64,000 nt of DNA from an uncultured Lentimicrobiaceae bacterium (lineage in GTDB: Bacteria > Bacteroidota > Bacteroidia > Bacteroidales > F082). How positions within the stretch are numbered: the stretch's first letter is position 1; every line of letters starts with the position of its first letter. The notes under the pieces are model-generated. The model did no database searches and was not told where the DNA came from. It saw nothing but the letters and a program-made list of their open reading frames with translations. This document shows positions 20,108-26,680 of this stretch, piece by piece. The stretch spans positions 79,236 through 143,235 of the forward strand of contig CAYWLJ010000003.1 in NCBI GenBank assembly GCA_964459375.1, read 5' to 3'. The translations under genes and the position numbers were made by a program.

Positions 20108-21163
20108 ATGAAAAGACAAATGCTTCGACTCAGCATGATGCTTTTGGCAGGTGCCATGGCATTCAGTGCATGCACAAAGGAAGGGCCGATGGGTCTATCG
20201 GGTAAAGATGGTAAAGACGGCAAAGACGGACGCGATGGGCGCGATGGTGTTGACGGCACTGCGGGTTGTATTCAGTGTCACGACAACAGCCAGGTGAACT
20301 TTGCAATCACCGCACAGTGGGAGCGCTCGACGCATGCCACTGGTGGGTTGTTTGTGCGCAACACAAACACCTGTGCCGGTTGCCACACCAGTCAGGGATT
20401 CCGCGAAATCATCCAGACCGGACTTCCGAACACAGCTGCCACTATCAACAATCCGGTTCCGCCGAATTGCTACACCTGTCATAATGTGCACACCACTTTT
20501 ACACCTGCTGACTGGGGGCTTAGCACAACTGCCAACATTACTTTCCGCCTTTTCCCCGACCGCACTCACAATTTTGGAAAAGGTAACCTTTGCGCAAGCT
20601 GTCATCAGCCCCGTCTGCCCAGCCCGATGCCTACCATTGGTGGACCGAATATAAACATTACTTCTGCCACTTGGGGACCTCATTATGGAACAGCAGGGGC
20701 TATTGTATCGGGCAAAGGTGGCTTTGAGCTAGGCACTGGATACACCAACTCGGCCCACGTTAACATGATCGGTCAGAGCTGCGTGGCATGCCACCTCACC
20801 ACAGCAAGTGGAATTAATGGCGGAGGCCACATGATGAACCTCGGCTATACCACAAGCACCGGAACAAAAGCTGTTATTACCACATCCTGCACCACATGCC
20901 ACAGTGATGATACTGCACTCAACACGCTCATTACGACAAAGAGAAATGAAATTGACACCCTCAAGATGCAGCTTGGCGATCGCCTGGTACAGATTGGCAT
21001 GCTCAACCCTACCACCCAGCGCGTTGTTACCGGCACATGGTCAGCAGCACAGGCTGGTGCCTTCATCAATTATATGCTGGTGAAGAACGACAAGGGCGCT
21101 GCATCGCACAATTTCCCTTATGCTAAGAAACTACTTGAAAATTCGCTTGCTGCCATTCAATAA
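20108..21163 (+). CDS. hexahaem c-type cytochrome lipoprotein with collagen-like N-terminal repeat
   Basis: Signal plus lipobox LAGAMAFSAC. Nine Gly-X-Y triplets. Six CxxCH: CIQCH, CAGCH, CYTCH, CASCH, CVACH, CTTCH. Confidence 0.85.
   Translation: MKRQMLRLSMMLLAGAMAFSACTKEGPMGLSGKDGKDGKDGRDGRDGVDGTAGCIQCHDNSQVNFAITAQWERSTHATGGLFVRNTNTCAGCHTSQGFREIIQTGLPNTAATINNPVPPNCYTCHNVHTTFTPADWGLSTTANITFRLFPDRTHNFGKGNLCASCHQPRLPSPMPTIGGPNINITSATWGPHYGTAGAIVSGKGGFELGTGYTNSAHVNMIGQSCVACHLTTASGINGGGHMMNLGYTTSTGTKAVITTSCTTCHSDDTALNTLITTKRNEIDTLKMQLGDRLVQIGMLNPTTQRVVTGTWSAAQAGAFINYMLVKNDKGAASHNFPYAKKLLENSLAAIQ
20183..20266 (+). repeat. collagen-like (Gly-X-Y)9 coding repeat inside the hexahaem gene
   Basis: GPM GLS GKD GKD GKD GRD GRD GVD GTA G. 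The 9-nt DNA periodicity (ggtaaagat ggtaaagac ggcaaagac ggacgcgat gggcgcgat) ends 1 residue before the first CxxCH. Confidence 0.9.
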
Positions 21164-21218: not shown

Positions 21219-21276
21219 CATGTTAAGCCGTTTTTACCTCAAATTCGTAACTTCGTCAATAAATTATAACAAGAAA

Positions 21277-21678
21277 ATGAAATCATTCGGCATTAACTAC
21301 TACAGGGTTTTGTTTGCCGTGATGGCTCTGGTGGCCTCAGCCGCACTCAGCTCGTGTCAGTACGAGTTTATCGAACCCGAGAGGCCAATTATTGACCCCA
21401 CTGTAGAAATCAAGTTTGCTACGGAGATCGCACCCATTTTCAGCAACAACAATGCCTGTACTGCCTGTCACCGCACCGGTGCCACACCTCCCGACCTCAC
21501 AGCCGAAAAGGCCTACAATGCCATTGTTCCTGCCTTTGTAAATACGGCAAACCCCGAACAAAGCAGCATCTATTGGTTTGCTCACCCCAACTCGACCACC
21601 CACAGCTGGAAGAAGTACACCCTTGCCGAAGCGGCACTCATACTTGAATGGATTAAACAAGGTGCCAAGAACAATTAA
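21277..21678 (+). CDS. monohaem lipoprotein, PSCyt1-like cytochrome c domain
   Basis: Start at MKSFGINYY (the track's 21220 start is less likely). Lipobox ALSSC. IAPIFSNNNACTACH ... AEAALILEWIKQGA resembles the Planctomycete cytochrome C (PSCyt1) pattern. Confidence 0.7.
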   Translation: MKSFGINYYRVLFAVMALVASAALSSCQYEFIEPERPIIDPTVEIKFATEIAPIFSNNNACTACHRTGATPPDLTAEKAYNAIVPAFVNTANPEQSSIYWFAHPNSTTHSWKKYTLAEAALILEWIKQGAKNN

Positions 21679-21686
21679 TAAATGCA

Positions 21687-22568
21687 ATGATGAAAGCAAT
21701 TATCAGCACGATTTTATTTTTCATGATTGCCAATGCTGGCATCATAGCTCAGGAGGAACAGCAGGCAGCTAAGCCCAAAGACCGCCCGGTGCGTTCGCCC
21801 TTCGAAAGTGGTTATCTGATTGACAACCAGACAACAGTTATTCCATCGCCTAAAACCCTGGAATATATTATCCAGCATAAGTTTGGCAGTATGAACAACG
21901 GTTTGACTGATCTTTTCGGGATATATGCACCCGGAGCAAACATCCGTATGGGATTGAATTATGTTCCTTACAAGAACGTTCAGGTAGGTTATGGCCTCAC
22001 AAGACTGAATATGTACAGCGACTTTTCGGTAAAGTATACTATCCTGGAACAAACCCGCCGCAATACCACACCTGTTGCAGTGGCCCTGTTTGGCAACATG
22101 GCCATCGATGGACGCAATGAAAAGGTCTATGGCAAAAACTACAGCTTTGCCAACCGTTTTTCCTACTTCAGTCAGCTCATTGTTGGCCGCCGCTTCAACG
22201 ACTGGCTGTCGGTTCAGTGCAATGCCAGCTTTACGCACTATAATGCCACCGATTCGCTCATCGACCACGATAAAATTGCTGTGGGAATCAACGGACGCAT
22301 TAAATTTTCGCCACAATCGAGCATTTTGTTCCAATACGATCATCCCCTGAAAATTAAAGATATAAGTGAGCACAGAGAGTTTACCAAGCCATCAAAACCC
22401 AACCTGGGTGTGGGATGGGAAATAAGAACAAGCACTCACGCGTTTCATATATATGTTTCGTCAGCCGATGGACTTGTTCCGCAGCACAATGCCATGTATA
22501 ACCAGAACGATTTCACGAAGGGCGATATGATGTTCGGATTTTCCATCACCCGCCTGTGGAGCTTTTAA
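21687..22568 (+). CDS. outer-membrane beta-barrel protein, DUF5777-like
   Basis: 293 aa. Signal peptide ...NAGIIAQ. Alternating beta-strand pattern. C-terminal FGFSITRLWSF (aromatic terminal residue typical of OMPs). No CxxCH. DUF number from memory. Confidence 0.65.
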   Translation: MMKAIISTILFFMIANAGIIAQEEQQAAKPKDRPVRSPFESGYLIDNQTTVIPSPKTLEYIIQHKFGSMNNGLTDLFGIYAPGANIRMGLNYVPYKNVQVGYGLTRLNMYSDFSVKYTILEQTRRNTTPVAVALFGNMAIDGRNEKVYGKNYSFANRFSYFSQLIVGRRFNDWLSVQCNASFTHYNATDSLIDHDKIAVGINGRIKFSPQSSILFQYDHPLKIKDISEHREFTKPSKPNLGVGWEIRTSTHAFHIYVSSADGLVPQHNAMYNQNDFTKGDMMFGFSITRLWSF

Positions 22569-22596: not shown

Positions 22597-23010
22597 ATGA
22601 GAAAACTCGTAATTGCAATGGCCGGATTGTTCACACTCGGCCTTCTGGCATTCGCCATGTCTCAGGAACAGAAAAAGGGCGAACCCTGGAAGATCTCAGC
22701 AGAGTACAAAAACAAGAAGAACCCACATACAGTTAATGCTGAATTTCTGAGTATCGGTAAGGATGTATATGCCAAACACTGCCGCTCATGCCACGGAAAC
22801 GCCGGCAAGGGCGATGGCCCCAAGGCACGTAACCTGAAAACACACCCCGGTGATTTTTCGGATGCCAAGTGGCATGCTTCTGTAACCGACGGTGAGGTGT
22901 ATTATATGTCAATCATCGGACGTGACGAAATGCCGAACTATGAATCCAAAATCACGGACGAAGAAGAGCGCTGGGCAATTGTTGTCTATATCCGCAGTAT
23001 GAAGAAATAA
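22597..23010 (+). CDS. class I monohaem cytochrome c
   Basis: 137 aa. Signal peptide. CRSCHGNAGKGDGP haem site and distal GRDEMP Met ligand context. Confidence 0.85.
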   Translation: MRKLVIAMAGLFTLGLLAFAMSQEQKKGEPWKISAEYKNKKNPHTVNAEFLSIGKDVYAKHCRSCHGNAGKGDGPKARNLKTHPGDFSDAKWHASVTDGEVYYMSIIGRDEMPNYESKITDEEERWAIVVYIRSMKK

Positions 23011-23021
23011 ATCGGTTAATT

Positions 23022-23061
23022 TGCTTCACAAGGGAAAGCAAATGGCTTTTCTCTTGTGAAG
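23022..23061 (+). terminator. long imperfect hairpin after the monohaem gene
   Basis: gcttcacaagggaaagc / gcttttctcttgtgaagc (10 perfect outer bp plus an inner arm), followed by acatttatt. Lies 12 nt after the stop at 23010. Confidence 0.5.
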
Positions 23062-23137
23062 CACATTTATTCTGGCATAGGGTTGCCTCATACCTTTACT
23101 GCTGTGATTCACGAATTCTGAACCAATCCCAAAACCT

Positions 23138-24094
23138 ATGACCAAGTATTTTACCTGGCTGGTAGCCTTTATGTTATTCCCATTCAATCTGCTTTTTGCA
23201 CAGCTGACCGTGGATATAGATGGCGAGCCGGCCGGGAAAACAGACAATCAGACTTGTTTCGATTGCCACGGAAAAAAGATATATTCCTACGAAAACCCAG
23301 TCACAGGCCGTATTGAGCGCAAGGCCATGAACCCCAATTTTGTTTTCGACCAACAGGCTTTTTATAGTGGGGTTCACCGCCATTTCCGGTGCACCGATTG
23401 CCATTCTCCTGATTATGAAACGTTTCCGCACAAAGCCGAGCTAAGGCTCGAAGCCAGGTATGGATGTCTGGACTGTCATGGAGGAGATCCTGCCTATGCC
23501 CATTTCCGTTTCGACGAAATTGGAGCAGAGTTCGAGAAAAGTGTGCATTTCGAGCGCCAACAGGAACGTTTCAACTGTTGGAGCTGTCATAATCCACATA
23601 CATACAAGGCTATGACACGAAGCGGTTTCAGAATTAGCGAAATTGTTCAGTACCACAACAATATGTGTGCAAGCTGCCACGACAATCCCGACCGCTTTCA
23701 AACAATCAGTGATAGCCTGAAGCTTCCGCTTGAAAAAATACATGGTTTTCTGCCAAATTTTAAACTGCACTTCAATGCCGTACGATGCATTGAGTGCCAC
23801 ACAGCTACAGCAGACACCATGTGGGTAGCCCACAACATCCTACCCAAAGAAATGGCTGTAAAACGCTGTGTTGAGTGTCATTCGAGCAATTCGCTGCTGA
23901 TGTCGTCGCTCTATAAGTATCAGAACATTGAATCGCGGAGGAGCCGTGGCACGCTTAATGCCATCATCCTCAACGAAGCATATGTGATTGGCGCCAACCG
24001 AAACATCTACCTGAACATTATGAGTATTGTAATTTTCGGCATGACCCTGCTGGGCGTGTTCATCCATATCATCTTCCGAATAAAAAAACCCTGA
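23138..24094 (+). CDS. heptahaem c-type cytochrome with C-terminal membrane anchor
   Basis: Seven CxxCH (CFDCH, CTDCH, CLDCH, CWSCH, CASCH, CIECH, CVECH). N-terminal signal. C-terminal TM helix IYLNIMSIVIFGMTLLGVFIHIIF. Confidence 0.85.
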   Translation: MTKYFTWLVAFMLFPFNLLFAQLTVDIDGEPAGKTDNQTCFDCHGKKIYSYENPVTGRIERKAMNPNFVFDQQAFYSGVHRHFRCTDCHSPDYETFPHKAELRLEARYGCLDCHGGDPAYAHFRFDEIGAEFEKSVHFERQQERFNCWSCHNPHTYKAMTRSGFRISEIVQYHNNMCASCHDNPDRFQTISDSLKLPLEKIHGFLPNFKLHFNAVRCIECHTATADTMWVAHNILPKEMAVKRCVECHSSNSLLMSSLYKYQNIESRRSRGTLNAIILNEAYVIGANRNIYLNIMSIVIFGMTLLGVFIHIIFRIKKP

Positions 24095-24095
24095 C

Positions 24096-24713
24096 ATGGC
24101 CGAAAGATTATACCTCTATCCCGTTTGGCTCCGATTCTGGCATGCCGTAAATGCGCTGATGTTTTTGGCGCTGATTGTCACAGGTATCAGCATGCAATAT
24201 TCCAATCCTGATGCGCCGCTCATCCGTTTTGATCTGGCTGTGCGCTTTCATAATATTGCCGGGGTGATTGTCACATTCAACTATCTGATATTTCTGGCAG
24301 GAAACCTTGCTACCGGCAACGGCCGGCATTACCGCATCCTCTTCGAGGGTTACTTCAGGCGTATTCTTCAGCAAATGGATTACTACCTGCGCGGGCATTT
24401 CAAGGGCGAGAAACCGCCATTCCCCGTTACAGGTGAGCGCAAATTCAACCCATTGCAGCAGGCCACCTATGTGGGCACCATGTATCTGCTGCTGCCACTG
24501 ATCATCATCACCGGTCTTGCGTTGCTTTTCCCTGAAACCATTGCCAACAGGGTTGGTAATTTCAGTGGCATTTACCTGACAGCACTGTTGCATTCAGCCG
24601 TTGGATTCCTGCTTTCCCTTTTTATGGTAATCCATATTTACTTCTCAACCATGGGTGCCACACCCTCGAGCAACTTCAAGGGAATGGCCACTGGCTGGCA
24701 CGAACCACACTGA
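24096..24713 (+). CDS. dihaem cytochrome b membrane subunit (Ni/Fe-hydrogenase/FdnI-type cytochrome b family)
   Basis: 205 aa, 4 TM helices with conserved His (RFWHAVN, VRFHNIAG, LLHSAVG, MVIHIYF). The ATG is 1 nt after the heptahaem stop (tgacatg). Confidence 0.8.
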   Translation: MAERLYLYPVWLRFWHAVNALMFLALIVTGISMQYSNPDAPLIRFDLAVRFHNIAGVIVTFNYLIFLAGNLATGNGRHYRILFEGYFRRILQQMDYYLRGHFKGEKPPFPVTGERKFNPLQQATYVGTMYLLLPLIIITGLALLFPETIANRVGNFSGIYLTALLHSAVGFLLSLFMVIHIYFSTMGATPSSNFKGMATGWHEPH

Positions 24714-24764: not shown

Positions 24765-25499
24765 ATGAACCGACTCATCGTTCTGTTTTTCGCTGTGACC
24801 CTTTTTTCATGCGGTAATCAGCAACCCAAAGTGGAATATGCACTCGACCCCAATAATACTGCCATTATTGTGTCGGAAGTATTGCAAAGCCCTATGTACA
24901 ATTATGTTCAGGGAAAAATTGACGGCAAGGAAACCTGGATAGCCGTTACAGCCGACGAGGTGGAAACCGGCAAGACCTACTACTTTTCCGAAATGTTGGA
25001 GATGACGGATTTTCATAGCAAGGAATTAGATCGCACTTTCGATCTGATTTTGTTTGTCGGAAACCTGAGCAGCAGGCCTATTCCGGTTACGGCAGCCATT
25101 CAGCATGATCATCAGCACGAAAATCGGCAATCAATGCAGCAAAGCAAAGGTGCTCCGCATCCGAGCCGGCAGGAGGTGACCATCAAACCGGTCGAAGGCA
25201 GCATCAGCTTGCAGGAATTGTGGGAAAAGCGCAAAAGTCTGGCTGGCAAAGTAGTTAAGGTTACTGGTCAGGTGGCTAAGTTCAATCCTGCAATCATGGG
25301 ACGCAACTGGCTGCATATTCAGGATGGAACAGGAAGCGAAGAATTTTTTGACCTCACCATTACCACGCTTGATCTGGCCGAGGTGGGCGATGTGGTAGTG
25401 GTTGAAGGTACAGTGGTGCTGAACAAGGATTTGGGTTCGGGCTATTTTTACGACATACTGCTCGAGGAAACTAAGGTTACTCGCCTGAGCATCTATTAA
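24765..25499 (+). CDS. two-domain lipoprotein with OB-fold-like C-terminal domain
   Basis: Lipobox TLFSC. N-domain YNYVQGKIDGKETWIAV ... DFHSKELDRTFDLILFV. His/Gln-rich linker IQHDHQHENRQ. C-domain GKVVKVTGQVAKFNPAIMGRNWLHIQDGTG ... GDVVVVEGTVV. Confidence 0.6.
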   Translation: MNRLIVLFFAVTLFSCGNQQPKVEYALDPNNTAIIVSEVLQSPMYNYVQGKIDGKETWIAVTADEVETGKTYYFSEMLEMTDFHSKELDRTFDLILFVGNLSSRPIPVTAAIQHDHQHENRQSMQQSKGAPHPSRQEVTIKPVEGSISLQELWEKRKSLAGKVVKVTGQVAKFNPAIMGRNWLHIQDGTGSEEFFDLTITTLDLAEVGDVVVVEGTVVLNKDLGSGYFYDILLEETKVTRLSIY

Positions 25500-25502
25500 A
25501 AG

Positions 25503-26147
25503 CTATTTACGGCCAAAATCGGCCGGAATCTCACCCCATTGAGCAGTGTCCCATTTCAGCAGGGCCACCTCGATGGGGTTTTCTTTTAACCATTTTTCGG
25601 CCCTTTCGATGACGGTAAAAAGGGCTTCTGTTGCCTCATTGCGAGGCAGCCTGCTTTTGGCTACGCCCTTACGCACCCATTTAATTGCCAGTTCCGAATC
25701 GGTGTAAACAGAAAGGTTTAGTCGTTTTTTTTTCTGCCAGGCCAGGGCATGAACAATGGCCAAAAACTCCCCGATATTGTTGGTGCCCAACTCCCATACC
25801 GGGCTGCGGAATATTTCGGTTCCGGTTTCAACATACACCCCGCGGTATTCCATCTTCCCGGGATTGCCGGAGCAGGCAGCATCCACACAAATGGCGTTGC
25901 CATCGGGTTTTGTGGCCAGTTGAAGGGTCGTCTTCTTCGGGTTCAGGGCTGGTGAAGCAAGCTGCGCACCATCTTCGTGCCCATGAGCAAAAGCCTTACG
26001 GGCAAGCTCAAGAGTGGGAAAACCCTTGTGCTTGGCGCCAGCATAGCCTTGCACCTGTTGCCGGCAAGCCTCCCAGCTCGTGTATATTCCGGGCTGAAAA
26101 CCCGACCATACAACATAGAATTTTGGCTTGTCTGATTTCTTTGGCAT
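25503..26147 (-). CDS. rnhA: ribonuclease HI with N-terminal hybrid-binding (viroplasmin-like) domain
   Basis: Start at MPKKSDKPKFYVVWSGFQPGIYTSWEACRQQVQGYAGAKHKGF (HBD). RNase H core DAACSGNPG ... TNNIGEFLAIVHAL ... YTDSELA. A -7 box at 26171 supports the ATG at 26147. Confidence 0.85.
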   Translation of the reverse strand: MPKKSDKPKFYVVWSGFQPGIYTSWEACRQQVQGYAGAKHKGFPTLELARKAFAHGHEDGAQLASPALNPKKTTLQLATKPDGNAICVDAACSGNPGKMEYRGVYVETGTEIFRSPVWELGTNNIGEFLAIVHALAWQKKKRLNLSVYTDSELAIKWVRKGVAKSRLPRNEATEALFTVIERAEKWLKENPIEVALLKWDTAQWGEIPADFGRK

Positions 26148-26170
26148 GCTTCGAAATAAGTCGATGACAT

Positions 26171-26178
26171 CAAAGATA
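26171..26178 (-). promoter_or_regulatory. candidate -7 box (TATCTTTG) for rnhA
   Basis: Plus-strand caaagata, 24 nt upstream of the ATG at 26147. Confidence 0.45.
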
Positions 26179-26214
26179 AGGACTTGCTTTGGGGATATCA
26201 AACCTGTTATGCCT

Positions 26215-26680
26215 TTACGCATTACATTTAAATAAAAGCCGGCTGAAATGCTCCATGCGATGAATGTCCACTTCGCCTGTAGGCTGCAAGGCCTGATAGC
26301 AAAATTGATCTCCGCTTGCATCCACACGGAAAAAATTGGCCCGCAAGCTCATGGGAAGCTCTGCCCGCAGCATAGAGAGTTCGTGTAAGGGAATAGCCAG
26401 CTCTGCAACCCATACTTTACATTGGCCCCGACTATTAACTTTCCCGTCAATCAACACCCGCGTCTGCGCACTACTCACGGCCTGCTCTACTTCGTGGAAA
26501 TGAGTGTGGAAGAATTTCTGCTTTCGGCCCGCGAGTCGGAGAAATCCACCGAGGGCTTCTGATTTCGGTAGCTAATTTGTACAAACAAGGGGCAAGAATG
26601 CCGCTAATTGTTCTTTTTAGTGACCCAGATTCCTGAATCGACCTTCCAGTCGTGGCCGAAAAAGCCTGATATTTCGACAC
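26215..26680 (-). pseudogene. remnant of a CBM9/DOMON-like carbohydrate-binding domain gene
   Basis: Only the C-terminal signature survives (ELAIPLHEL ... ANFFRVDASGDQFCYQALQPTGEVDIHRMEHFSRLLF). The frame is open from 26571 without a plausible start. The overlapping ORF 26471-26680 is in another frame. Confidence 0.3.

Follow-up and report, generated by a model that had tools for sequence, protein, structure and literature searches.

A collagen-like Gly-X-Y tether between the lipid anchor and the haem domain of a predicted hexahaem cytochrome of Bacteroidota

A Gly-X-Y tether in a hexahaem lipoprotein

The present study concerns a 64,000-nucleotide stretch of DNA from an uncultured Lentimicrobiaceae bacterium (contig CAYWLJ010000003.1, positions 79,236 to 143,235 of the forward strand; this whole stretch is called the window) and, within it, a gene coding for a lipoprotein with six c-type haem-binding motifs. 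In this electron-transfer cytochrome, the N-terminal lipid anchor is joined to the haem domain by a tether built of Gly-X-Y triplets. Judged from its sequence and its conservation, the repeat is a genuine, selected bacterial collagen-like domain and not a product of chance. We lean towards reading it as a collagen-like rod, probably a parallel homotrimer, which would space and bundle the haem heads. The gene and its parts are listed below, with positions in the window and residues in amino acids (aa).

20108-21163 (+): hexahaem c-type cytochrome lipoprotein of 351 aa with a collagen-like tether (open reading frame; PF22113, PF14522, PF09699; 568 homologues; AF2 model with a predicted local distance difference test score, pLDDT, of 85)
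20108-20173 (+): signal peptide (aa 1-21) and lipobox F-S-A-C (from the sequence)
20171-20173 (+): Cys22, the predicted lipidated residue, invariant in 108 aligned homologues
20174-20182 (+): the residues T-K-E that follow Cys22, matching in part the signal for lipoprotein export in Bacteroidetes, C-X-K-(D/E)2 (PMC5080379)
20183-20266 (+): collagen-like segment, with nine Gly-X-Y triplets (20183-20263) and a tenth Gly, G53 (20264-20266)
20201-20229 (+): 9-nucleotide (nt) tandem repeat GGTAAAGAC in 3.2 copies, encoding GKD GKD GKD (Tandem Repeats Finder)
20267-20281 (+): haem-binding motif 1, CIQCH, immediately 3' of the repeat (C54, C57 and H58 invariant)
20372-20902 (+): haem motifs 2-6, all invariant in the alignment, namely CAGCH (20372-20386), CYTCH (20468-20482), CASCH (20591-20605), CVACH (20780-20794) and CTTCH (20888-20902), all on the + strand

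On translation the N-terminus reads MKRQMLRLSMMLLAGAMAFSA-C22-TKE-GPM GLS GKD GKD GKD GRD GRD GVD GTA-G-CIQCH. An initial annotation of this DNA had placed nine uninterrupted triplets four residues past the lipobox Cys, followed by a CxxCH motif one residue later, and the translation agrees with it in every detail. Its description of the protein as a hexahaem lipoprotein is borne out too, by Cys22 in the lipobox and by six CxxCH motifs, which start at aa 54, 89, 121, 162, 225 and 261. The Gly-X-Y run makes up nearly the entire tether from the lipid-anchor Cys to haem 1. Gly accounts for 9.6% of the protein outside the repeat, and at this frequency nine in-register Gly would be expected about 2e-7 times per protein. 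When all six frames of the 64 kb were considered, the second-longest run with a Gly period of three was only five triplets. At the DNA level the tandem repeat within the segment covers only 29 nt (20201-20229), and with only 3.2 copies of the 9-nt unit the Gly periodicity is not simply that of a young DNA repeat.

Retention of the repeat across the family

A search of 5.8 billion proteins yielded the 568 homologues, and the close set was made up of those 116 of the best 120 matches (40-86% identity) that are full-length and have a lipobox. For the distant set, 1.84 billion representatives clustered at 50% identity were searched with the cytochrome domain alone; since this query lacks the repeat, the repeat cannot bias the matches. 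With E <= 1e-3 there were 973 matches, 157 of them with E <= 1e-30.

It was found that all of the close homologues (116/116) carry 5-11 triplets at the same position, in the layout lipobox Cys, then TKE or EGD, Gly-X-Y run and first CxxCH, and that the signal peptide with its lipobox F-S-A-C is kept in the homologues. In the alignment of 108 sequences, G26, G29, G32, G41, G44, G47 and G50 are invariant or at least 90% conserved. Among the 122 full-length lipoprotein representatives of the distant set, at least three triplets are found in 111 (range 3-16), at least five in 93 (maximum 16) and, counting from the length distribution, at least six in 82. The position of the repeat is retained down to about 32% identity, the run covers a median 87% of the linker between the Cys and the first CxxCH in the representatives, and haem motif 1 begins 0-4 residues past the last triplet in most members. 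The initial annotation had suggested searching other genomes for the combination of Gly-X-Y repeat and CxxCH motifs, and had noted that homologues devoid of the repeat would make it a lineage-specific low-complexity linker. The combination occurs family-wide, in the close and the distant set alike, so the repeat is not specific to a lineage.

In relatives of 83-87% identity, Gly is retained in spite of synonymous differences between Gly codons, and the length of the repeat differs by in-frame 9-nt insertions and deletions. The retention of Gly through synonymous codon change, together with the conserved position, indicates that the periodicity is under selection at the protein level. The 9-nt tandem repeat is a likely substrate for slippage that alters the length of the stalk, and from these comparisons the triplet number appears to drift by slippage.

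Two double-length fusions with 13 haems, P0133 (797 aa) and P0208 (721 aa), retain the N-terminal stalk. Stalk-less representatives with acidic or mixed linkers of 12-20 aa (P0125, P0130, P0154, P0200, P0205, P0234, P0237, P0256, P0261 and P0262) were also seen, and P0140, which is grouped with them, has 2 triplets. Such members are natural controls for a functional comparison. No open reading frame outside the hexahaem family with at least five Gly-X-Y triplets was found in about 900 kb of sequence from 84 related loci. A heterotrimer partner bearing Gly-X-Y triplets was considered and rejected, as none was seen in the window and none outside the hexahaem family in the 84 loci.

Triple helix or single chain

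Over all repeats of the family, 1893 Gly residues are in phase and 15 are out of phase, that is, 99.2% are in phase. Position X holds 29% Pro, 16% Thr and 10% Lys, position Y holds 36% Asp, 27% Ala and 10% Asn, and Gly itself makes up 0.7% of Y and less than 1.4% of X, which is a composition of the collagen type. The Pfam Collagen model (PF01391) matches aa 26-52 with E 2.4e-4 and 21.2 bits, below its gathering score of 27.2 because the run is short, and a homologue with 10 triplets (P0007) carries a precomputed PF01391 match. The NCBIfam model SclB gives a weak match at aa 25-53 (E 1.1e-4, far under the cut-off) to SclB positions 294-322. A run of at least six uninterrupted triplets has been used as the operational threshold for a triple-helical domain (PMC11923368), and the nine triplets of the window protein exceed it.

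For a Gly at strictly every third residue there is no known structural rationale except the packing of a triple helix, and the periodicity would therefore support one. The enrichment of Pro specifically in X and the length of the run beyond six triplets point in the same direction. By analogy, so does the likeness of the triplets to those of the triple-helical Scl2.

A number of observations weigh against a triple helix. The Gly-X-Y segment carries a net negative charge, the family median being -3, and Asp and Asn in Y are poor triple-helix formers according to host-guest data. KGD and KGE triplets, which are reported to stabilise triple helices kinetically and to make up 3-6% in collagen-like proteins in general (PMC11923368), account for only 12 of 1609 family triplets (0.7%). 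The initial annotation had taken the charged Lys/Arg-Asp pairs as characteristic of bacterial collagen-like proteins. This stands in so far as the GKD triplets resemble the collagen region of Scl2/SclB, but not for the stabilising K-G-D/E order, since the pairs in the window repeat are ordered D-G-K/R (DGK, DGR). No known trimerisation domain was found in the hexahaem protein with Pfam and NCBIfam, and folding without help is unlikely for nine triplets that lack hydroxyproline. The AF2 monomer model has a pLDDT below 50 at aa 22-58 and is uninformative for the stalk. OcwA, the nearest solved relative of the haem domain, is akin to NrfA and MccA and serves as a terminal reductase on the cell surface; in solution it is a mixture of monomer and dimer (PMC6703420). 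Of the 122 distant representatives, 11 are without a Gly-X-Y run and have a linker of 12-20 aa instead, and some others have only 3-4 triplets, which means that the head must be able to function without a triple helix. As to display at the cell surface, only half of the export signal for surface lipoproteins is present, and the 12-strand partner barrel, being too small for a conduit of the MtrB type, likewise leaves it uncertain. The signal, C-X-K-(D/E)2 or an equivalent net-negative motif at +2 to +6, has been experimentally defined for Bacteroidetes in its C-X-K-(D/E)2 form, and 'KD' alone is insufficient in C. canimorsus (PMC5080379). The window protein has a lipobox followed by C-T-K-E-G, with K at +3 and one acidic residue, and other family members begin with C-E-G-P or C-E-G-D. 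With one acidic residue only, surface exposure is neither supported nor excluded, and an outer-membrane anchor facing the periplasm would be equally compatible with the sequences.

Several of these points would also fit a monomeric spacer, in which the segment is one extended chain, polyproline-II-like and negatively charged, that lends the head reach and mobility, and in which the Gly period persists through slippage of triplet-sized units. The variation in length from 0 to 16 triplets, the 9-nt units of the insertions and deletions, the scarcity of KGD and KGE with the negative charge, the missing trimerisation domain and the monomer/dimer state of OcwA are all consistent with it. There is also a precedent in PgcA, a lipoprotein cytochrome with repeat linkers and without a triple helix (PMC5732950). 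Yet a flexible linker needs no Gly at every third residue, and here nearly every Gly is in phase. Moreover, the phase survives complete divergence of X and Y and differing Gly codons across lineages, Pro is enriched in X specifically, and the DNA-level repeat makes up only a small part of the run in the window. We therefore regard a monomeric spacer as unlikely, while giving it real weight.

The haem head

The AF2 model, built from the 108-sequence alignment, has a mean pLDDT of 85 overall and is confident over aa 60-351 (about 90 for the head). Helices at 268-296, 313-327 and 333-349 form a C-terminal three-helix bundle. The closest solved structure in Foldseek is OcwA of Thermincola potens (6i5b; E 2e-5, TMq 0.49), a remote match, followed by NrfA enzymes and the S-layer undecahaem OmhA (6qvm). 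A hidden Markov model profile search of the sequences in the Protein Data Bank found 6i5b with E 2.9e-13 over the C-terminal 130 aa, which is the three-helix region. The protein thus has the multiple CxxCH motifs, the fold and the C-terminal three-helix bundle of the NrfA/OcwA/MccA superfamily, and on the model its haem domain is a distant OcwA/NrfA-type fold. This superfamily has both dimeric (NrfA, OcwA) and trimeric (HAO, MccA) members.

In the same alignment H76, H128, H192, H241 and H334 are invariant and H217 is at least 90% conserved. These six extra His could serve as distal ligands and would be enough for six bis-His haems. No CxxCK motif is present in the hexahaem sequence. Six candidate bis-His haems and the lack of CxxCK argue for an electron relay, and the protein was rejected as a nitrite reductase on these grounds and because the equivalog scores lie far under their cut-offs (TIGR03152, 18.9 bits against 692.5; NF008339, 17.9 against 595). 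A decahaem lipoprotein of the MtrC/OmcA type was considered as well. The Pfam model for MtrC/MtrF domain II/IV matches aa 48-129 with 47.6 bits, above threshold, and TIGR03507 (OmcA/MtrC family) gives no match to the hexahaem protein. This candidate was rejected because there are six haems, only the domain II/IV model matches and the partner barrel has 12 strands.

Gene module and distribution

The hexahaem lipoprotein gene is the first in a module of seven genes on the same strand with short gaps. Neighbourhood counts were taken over the 84 loci of hexahaem relatives.

21220-21678 (+): small monohaem (CTACH) lipoprotein, weakly LIC11213-like, beside the hexahaem gene in 72/84 loci
21687-22568 (+): DUF5777 outer-membrane beta-barrel with 12 strands in the model (PF19089, E 1.3e-74; 76/84 loci)
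22597-23010 (+): monohaem class-I cytochrome c (CRSCH) with a signal peptide (PF13442, PF00034; 56/84 loci)
23138-24094 (+): heptahaem c-type cytochrome with a C-terminal transmembrane helix (seven CxxCH; Pfam and NCBIfam matches; 64/84 loci)
24096-24713 (+): membrane cytochrome b of the Ni_hydr_CYTB/b561 family (PF01292, E 1.9e-25; 61/84 loci)
24765-25499 (+): predicted lipoprotein of 244 aa, a variable member of the module (N-terminus ...LFSC; 20/84 loci), without a Pfam match

The first ATG of the small monohaem lipoprotein gives 152 aa and its homologues have 133-135 aa, so that the start is probably Met20 at 21277. A gap of 8 nt separates the end of its gene from the barrel gene, a spacing suggestive of coupled expression, and the two products look like a split cytochrome-plus-porin pair. 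The cytochrome b is presumed to be the subunit that interacts with quinol or quinone. From their domain families, the heptahaem cytochrome c and the cytochrome b look like a membrane oxidoreductase on the quinol side, and such a pair would resemble CbcL of Geobacter.

Between the monohaem cytochrome c and heptahaem genes there is a perfect-looking hairpin with a 17-bp stem and a T-rich tail (23022-23063, +). This hairpin is a possible terminator or attenuator and would then divide the module into an outer-membrane and an inner-membrane unit. Scans for sigma-70 and Bacteroidetes-type promoters gave nothing above chance. Past the module, an RNase H1-like gene with an N-terminal Cauli_VI (hybrid-binding) domain lies at 25503-26327 (-) and is syntenic in L001.

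Other arrangements occur among the relatives. Two tandem hexahaem paralogues precede the small lipoprotein and the barrel in L037 (2142-4551), L038 (1808-4217) and L049 (1029-4046), and in these three loci all open reading frames with at least five Gly-X-Y triplets belong to the hexahaem family. In two distant relatives, L003 (7110-7805) and L004 (7086-7739), a Crp/Fnr-type regulator (cNMP_binding and HTH_Crp_2) stands divergently upstream of the hexahaem gene, and in the window this position is held by an asparagine synthase. In a relative from Saprospiraceae (L002, 5216-7789), the hexahaem gene is immediately preceded by the system II cytochrome c maturation genes ResB and CcsA, with the heptahaem/cytochrome b pair further upstream, so that the same parts as in the window stand in another order.

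When one genome per GTDB species was scanned, relatives were found in at least 354 species genomes. Most of the whole set are metagenome-assembled genomes (MAGs) of Bacteroidota, and the best 80 of the matches are all MAGs. These best 80 span Bacteroidales, Lentimicrobiaceae, Marinilabiliales, Draconibacterium, Lewinellaceae/Saprospiraceae and 'Chlorobiota'.

The DUF5777 barrel and other roles for the tether

The AF2 model of the DUF5777 protein (pLDDT 84) has 12 strands, and its closest folds are FapF, the COG4313 channel, KdgM, NanC and autotransporter beta-domains. Its identity in the best 120 matches is 62-98%, far above the conservation of the cytochrome, and its N-terminal segment, at about aa 28-55, is highly conserved. 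No paper mentioning DUF5777 was found in the open-access literature and bioRxiv. With 12 strands the barrel is too small to enclose a multihaem wire and so would not be a conduit of the Mtr or Pcc type; an MtrCAB-type conduit was rejected on the strand number of the model.

The barrel raises another role for the tether. Whether single-chain or triple-helical, the Gly-X-Y segment could be threaded through the lumen of DUF5777, with the haem head on the opposite face of the outer membrane. Threading is known from passenger linkers in 12-stranded autotransporter barrels and from RcsF in OmpA/C/F. The adjacency of the two genes in most loci would fit this, as would the presence of FapF, a polypeptide transporter, and of autotransporter beta-domains among the nearest folds of a 12-strand barrel, the much stronger conservation of the barrel than of the cytochrome, and the missing canonical export signal. 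The shortest tethers of 12-20 aa could, if extended, span the membrane. The fold likeness, however, is generic among 12-strand barrels (TM-score about 0.5), and the barrel's own conserved N-terminal segment could be its plug. The cytochrome also occurs without the barrel (L004/L014, L067, L068 and L078), and tethers of up to 16 triplets are far longer than threading would require. A threaded tether is hence improbable. The further proposal, that threading combined with a haem-1 cluster at the mouth of the barrel and an 18-haem head opposite would make a new outer-membrane conduit unrelated to MtrCAB, Pcc and Cyc2, is a shade more improbable still.

We give even less credence to the repeat being an acidic binding element, in which the carboxylates of G-x-D/N would bind Ca2+, Fe or mineral and spacing would be secondary. 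The abundance of Asp and Asn in Y, the net negative charge and a gene context that indicates metal or redox chemistry would suit such a role. On the other side, the repeats of the Saprospiraceae and Lewinellaceae type are rich in GPx and GxA and nearly free of Asp, for example GPQGPEGPTGATGPEGPAGQNG, which indicates that the conserved element is Gly and Pro and not Asp. Two Ca2+-binding repeats are known by their patterns, GGxGxDxUx for RTX and DxDxDGxxDxxD for TSP3; both were rejected, as the pattern does not match and nearly Asp-free members exist.

The sub-threshold Pfam Collagen score would be in line with a chance or lineage-specific low-complexity insert without function, but given the expectation of about 2e-7 and a repeat in more than 90% of a family spanning at least 354 species genomes, we attach almost no probability to it, and a young DNA repeat (29 nt in tandem only, synonymous variation of Gly codons) and a lineage-specific insert (116/116 close homologues, 111/122 representatives) were likewise rejected.

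Proposed mechanism

If the repeat is a collagen-like rod, the following sequence of events can be envisaged. Three lipid-anchored chains would zip into a parallel triple helix, the three N-terminal lipid anchors keeping the chains in register and at a high local concentration. Collagen rises by about 0.29 nm per residue. On this geometry the 28 residues of the window segment would give a rod of about 8 nm, and for 3-16 triplets the length would be roughly 3-14 nm. Such a rod would set the hexahaem heads at a fixed distance from the membrane. Because haem motif 1 lies within 0-4 residues of the last triplet, the geometry would bring the three haem-1 groups together at the three-fold axis, and the trimer would be an 18-haem unit. 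An 18-haem trimer kept off the membrane had also been put forward in the initial annotation, as a geometry that might favour contact with insoluble partners. The heads, probably all bis-His, would relay electrons and carry out no catalysis. They could link the cytochrome b/heptahaem complex on the quinol side and the monohaem cytochrome c with the outer-membrane part, which would consist of the small monohaem lipoprotein and the 12-strand DUF5777 barrel, or with an external or soluble redox partner. The length of the stalk could be tuned via slippage of the triplet-coding units. Taken together, the protein could be a homotrimeric cytochrome with 18 haems, lipid-anchored and raised on a collagen stalk, that acts as a terminal or bridging element in a so far undescribed route of electron transfer in Bacteroidota; this fuller picture is put forward tentatively and is held with less confidence than the rod itself.

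Significance

Bacterial collagen-like repeats, lipoprotein multihaem cytochromes and OcwA/NrfA-type folds are all known, and their combination is undescribed in the searchable literature. The initial annotation was aware of no described collagen-stalked multihaem cytochrome, and likewise no paper describing a collagen-like or collagen-stalked cytochrome was found in the open-access literature and bioRxiv. In public records the proteins are named 'hypothetical protein', 'nitrate/TMAO reductase-like tetraheme cytochrome c subunit' or 'ammonia-forming cytochrome c nitrite reductase subunit c552'.

Knowledge of multihaem cytochromes that pass electrons to or from minerals, electrodes or partner cells comes largely from Shewanella, Geobacter and a few members of the Firmicutes. 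Bacteroidota are often found in sediments and in the biofilms of anodes, and their machinery for electron exchange is essentially undescribed. Here a large family, in at least 354 species genomes, comes with a conserved set of partners, namely the 12-strand barrel, the small haem lipoprotein and the quinol-side complex. Should the rod prove trimeric, it would show a triple helix being used in nature to arrange redox cofactors at a defined distance from the membrane, with a bearing on the electrical bridging of the periplasm or the lipopolysaccharide layer and on bioelectronic proteins designed around collagen scaffolds. Should it prove monomeric, one would have to explain why a linker keeps such strict Gly periodicity.

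Comparison with known systems

An anode-enriched cluster of Bacteroidetes_1, with six multihaem genes and a barrel (PMC8258643), may be related to the module; the two were compared by description only, and the description does not match the gene set. The system is similar to MtrC/OmcA with MtrAB and to Cyc2 in that a multihaem lipoprotein is encoded beside an outer-membrane barrel and quinol-side cytochromes. Unlike MtrC/OmcA, the present protein has six haems and not ten, and no four-domain staggered cross. The barrels differ in strand number as well, MtrB having 26 and Cyc2 16 as against 12 here.

With OcwA the hexahaem protein shares the C-terminal three-helix bundle and a proposed role in electron transfer at the envelope. 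OcwA has nine haems, of which two have open coordination and one is His-Met, whereas the hexahaem protein has six haems and six candidate distal His. OcwA is also without a lipid anchor and without a collagen-like segment, and the identity between the two is about 20%.

PgcA of Geobacter sulfurreducens is likewise a lipid-anchored multihaem cytochrome with Pro-rich tandem repeats of variable length, though the two proteins are not homologous. It has three haems, its repeats have been proposed to give reach to extracellular acceptors, and their circular dichroism is without any sign of collagen-type structure (PMC5732950). The PgcA repeats are of the form (P-T-x)n and lie between haem domains, whereas here strict Gly-X-Y triplets lie only between the anchor and the head.

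The tether itself is closest to the collagen-like proteins Scl1/Scl2 (SclB) and BclA, which also have uninterrupted Gly-X-Y triplets without hydroxyproline and a stalk-plus-head layout on the cell envelope. Triplets such as GKD, GQD and GxN are common to the collagen region of Scl2 and the hexahaem family, and the number of triplets is variable here as the number of repeats is between strains in Scl and BclA. Scl and BclA carry tens of triplets against 3-16 in the hexahaem family. They are anchored through LPXTG or the exosporium and not by an N-terminal lipid, and in place of a V-domain or a C1q-like trimerising head there is here a multihaem cytochrome. The near absence of KGD and KGE sets the family apart from collagen-like proteins in general.

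In its design principle the proposed stalk can also be compared with C1q, the collectins and the ColQ tail of acetylcholinesterase. These are eukaryotic and hydroxylated, with far longer helices and dedicated trimerising necks, and there is no evolutionary relation to the hexahaem family; what they would have in common with it is the use of a collagen triple helix as a rigid stalk that oligomerises and spaces the heads it carries.

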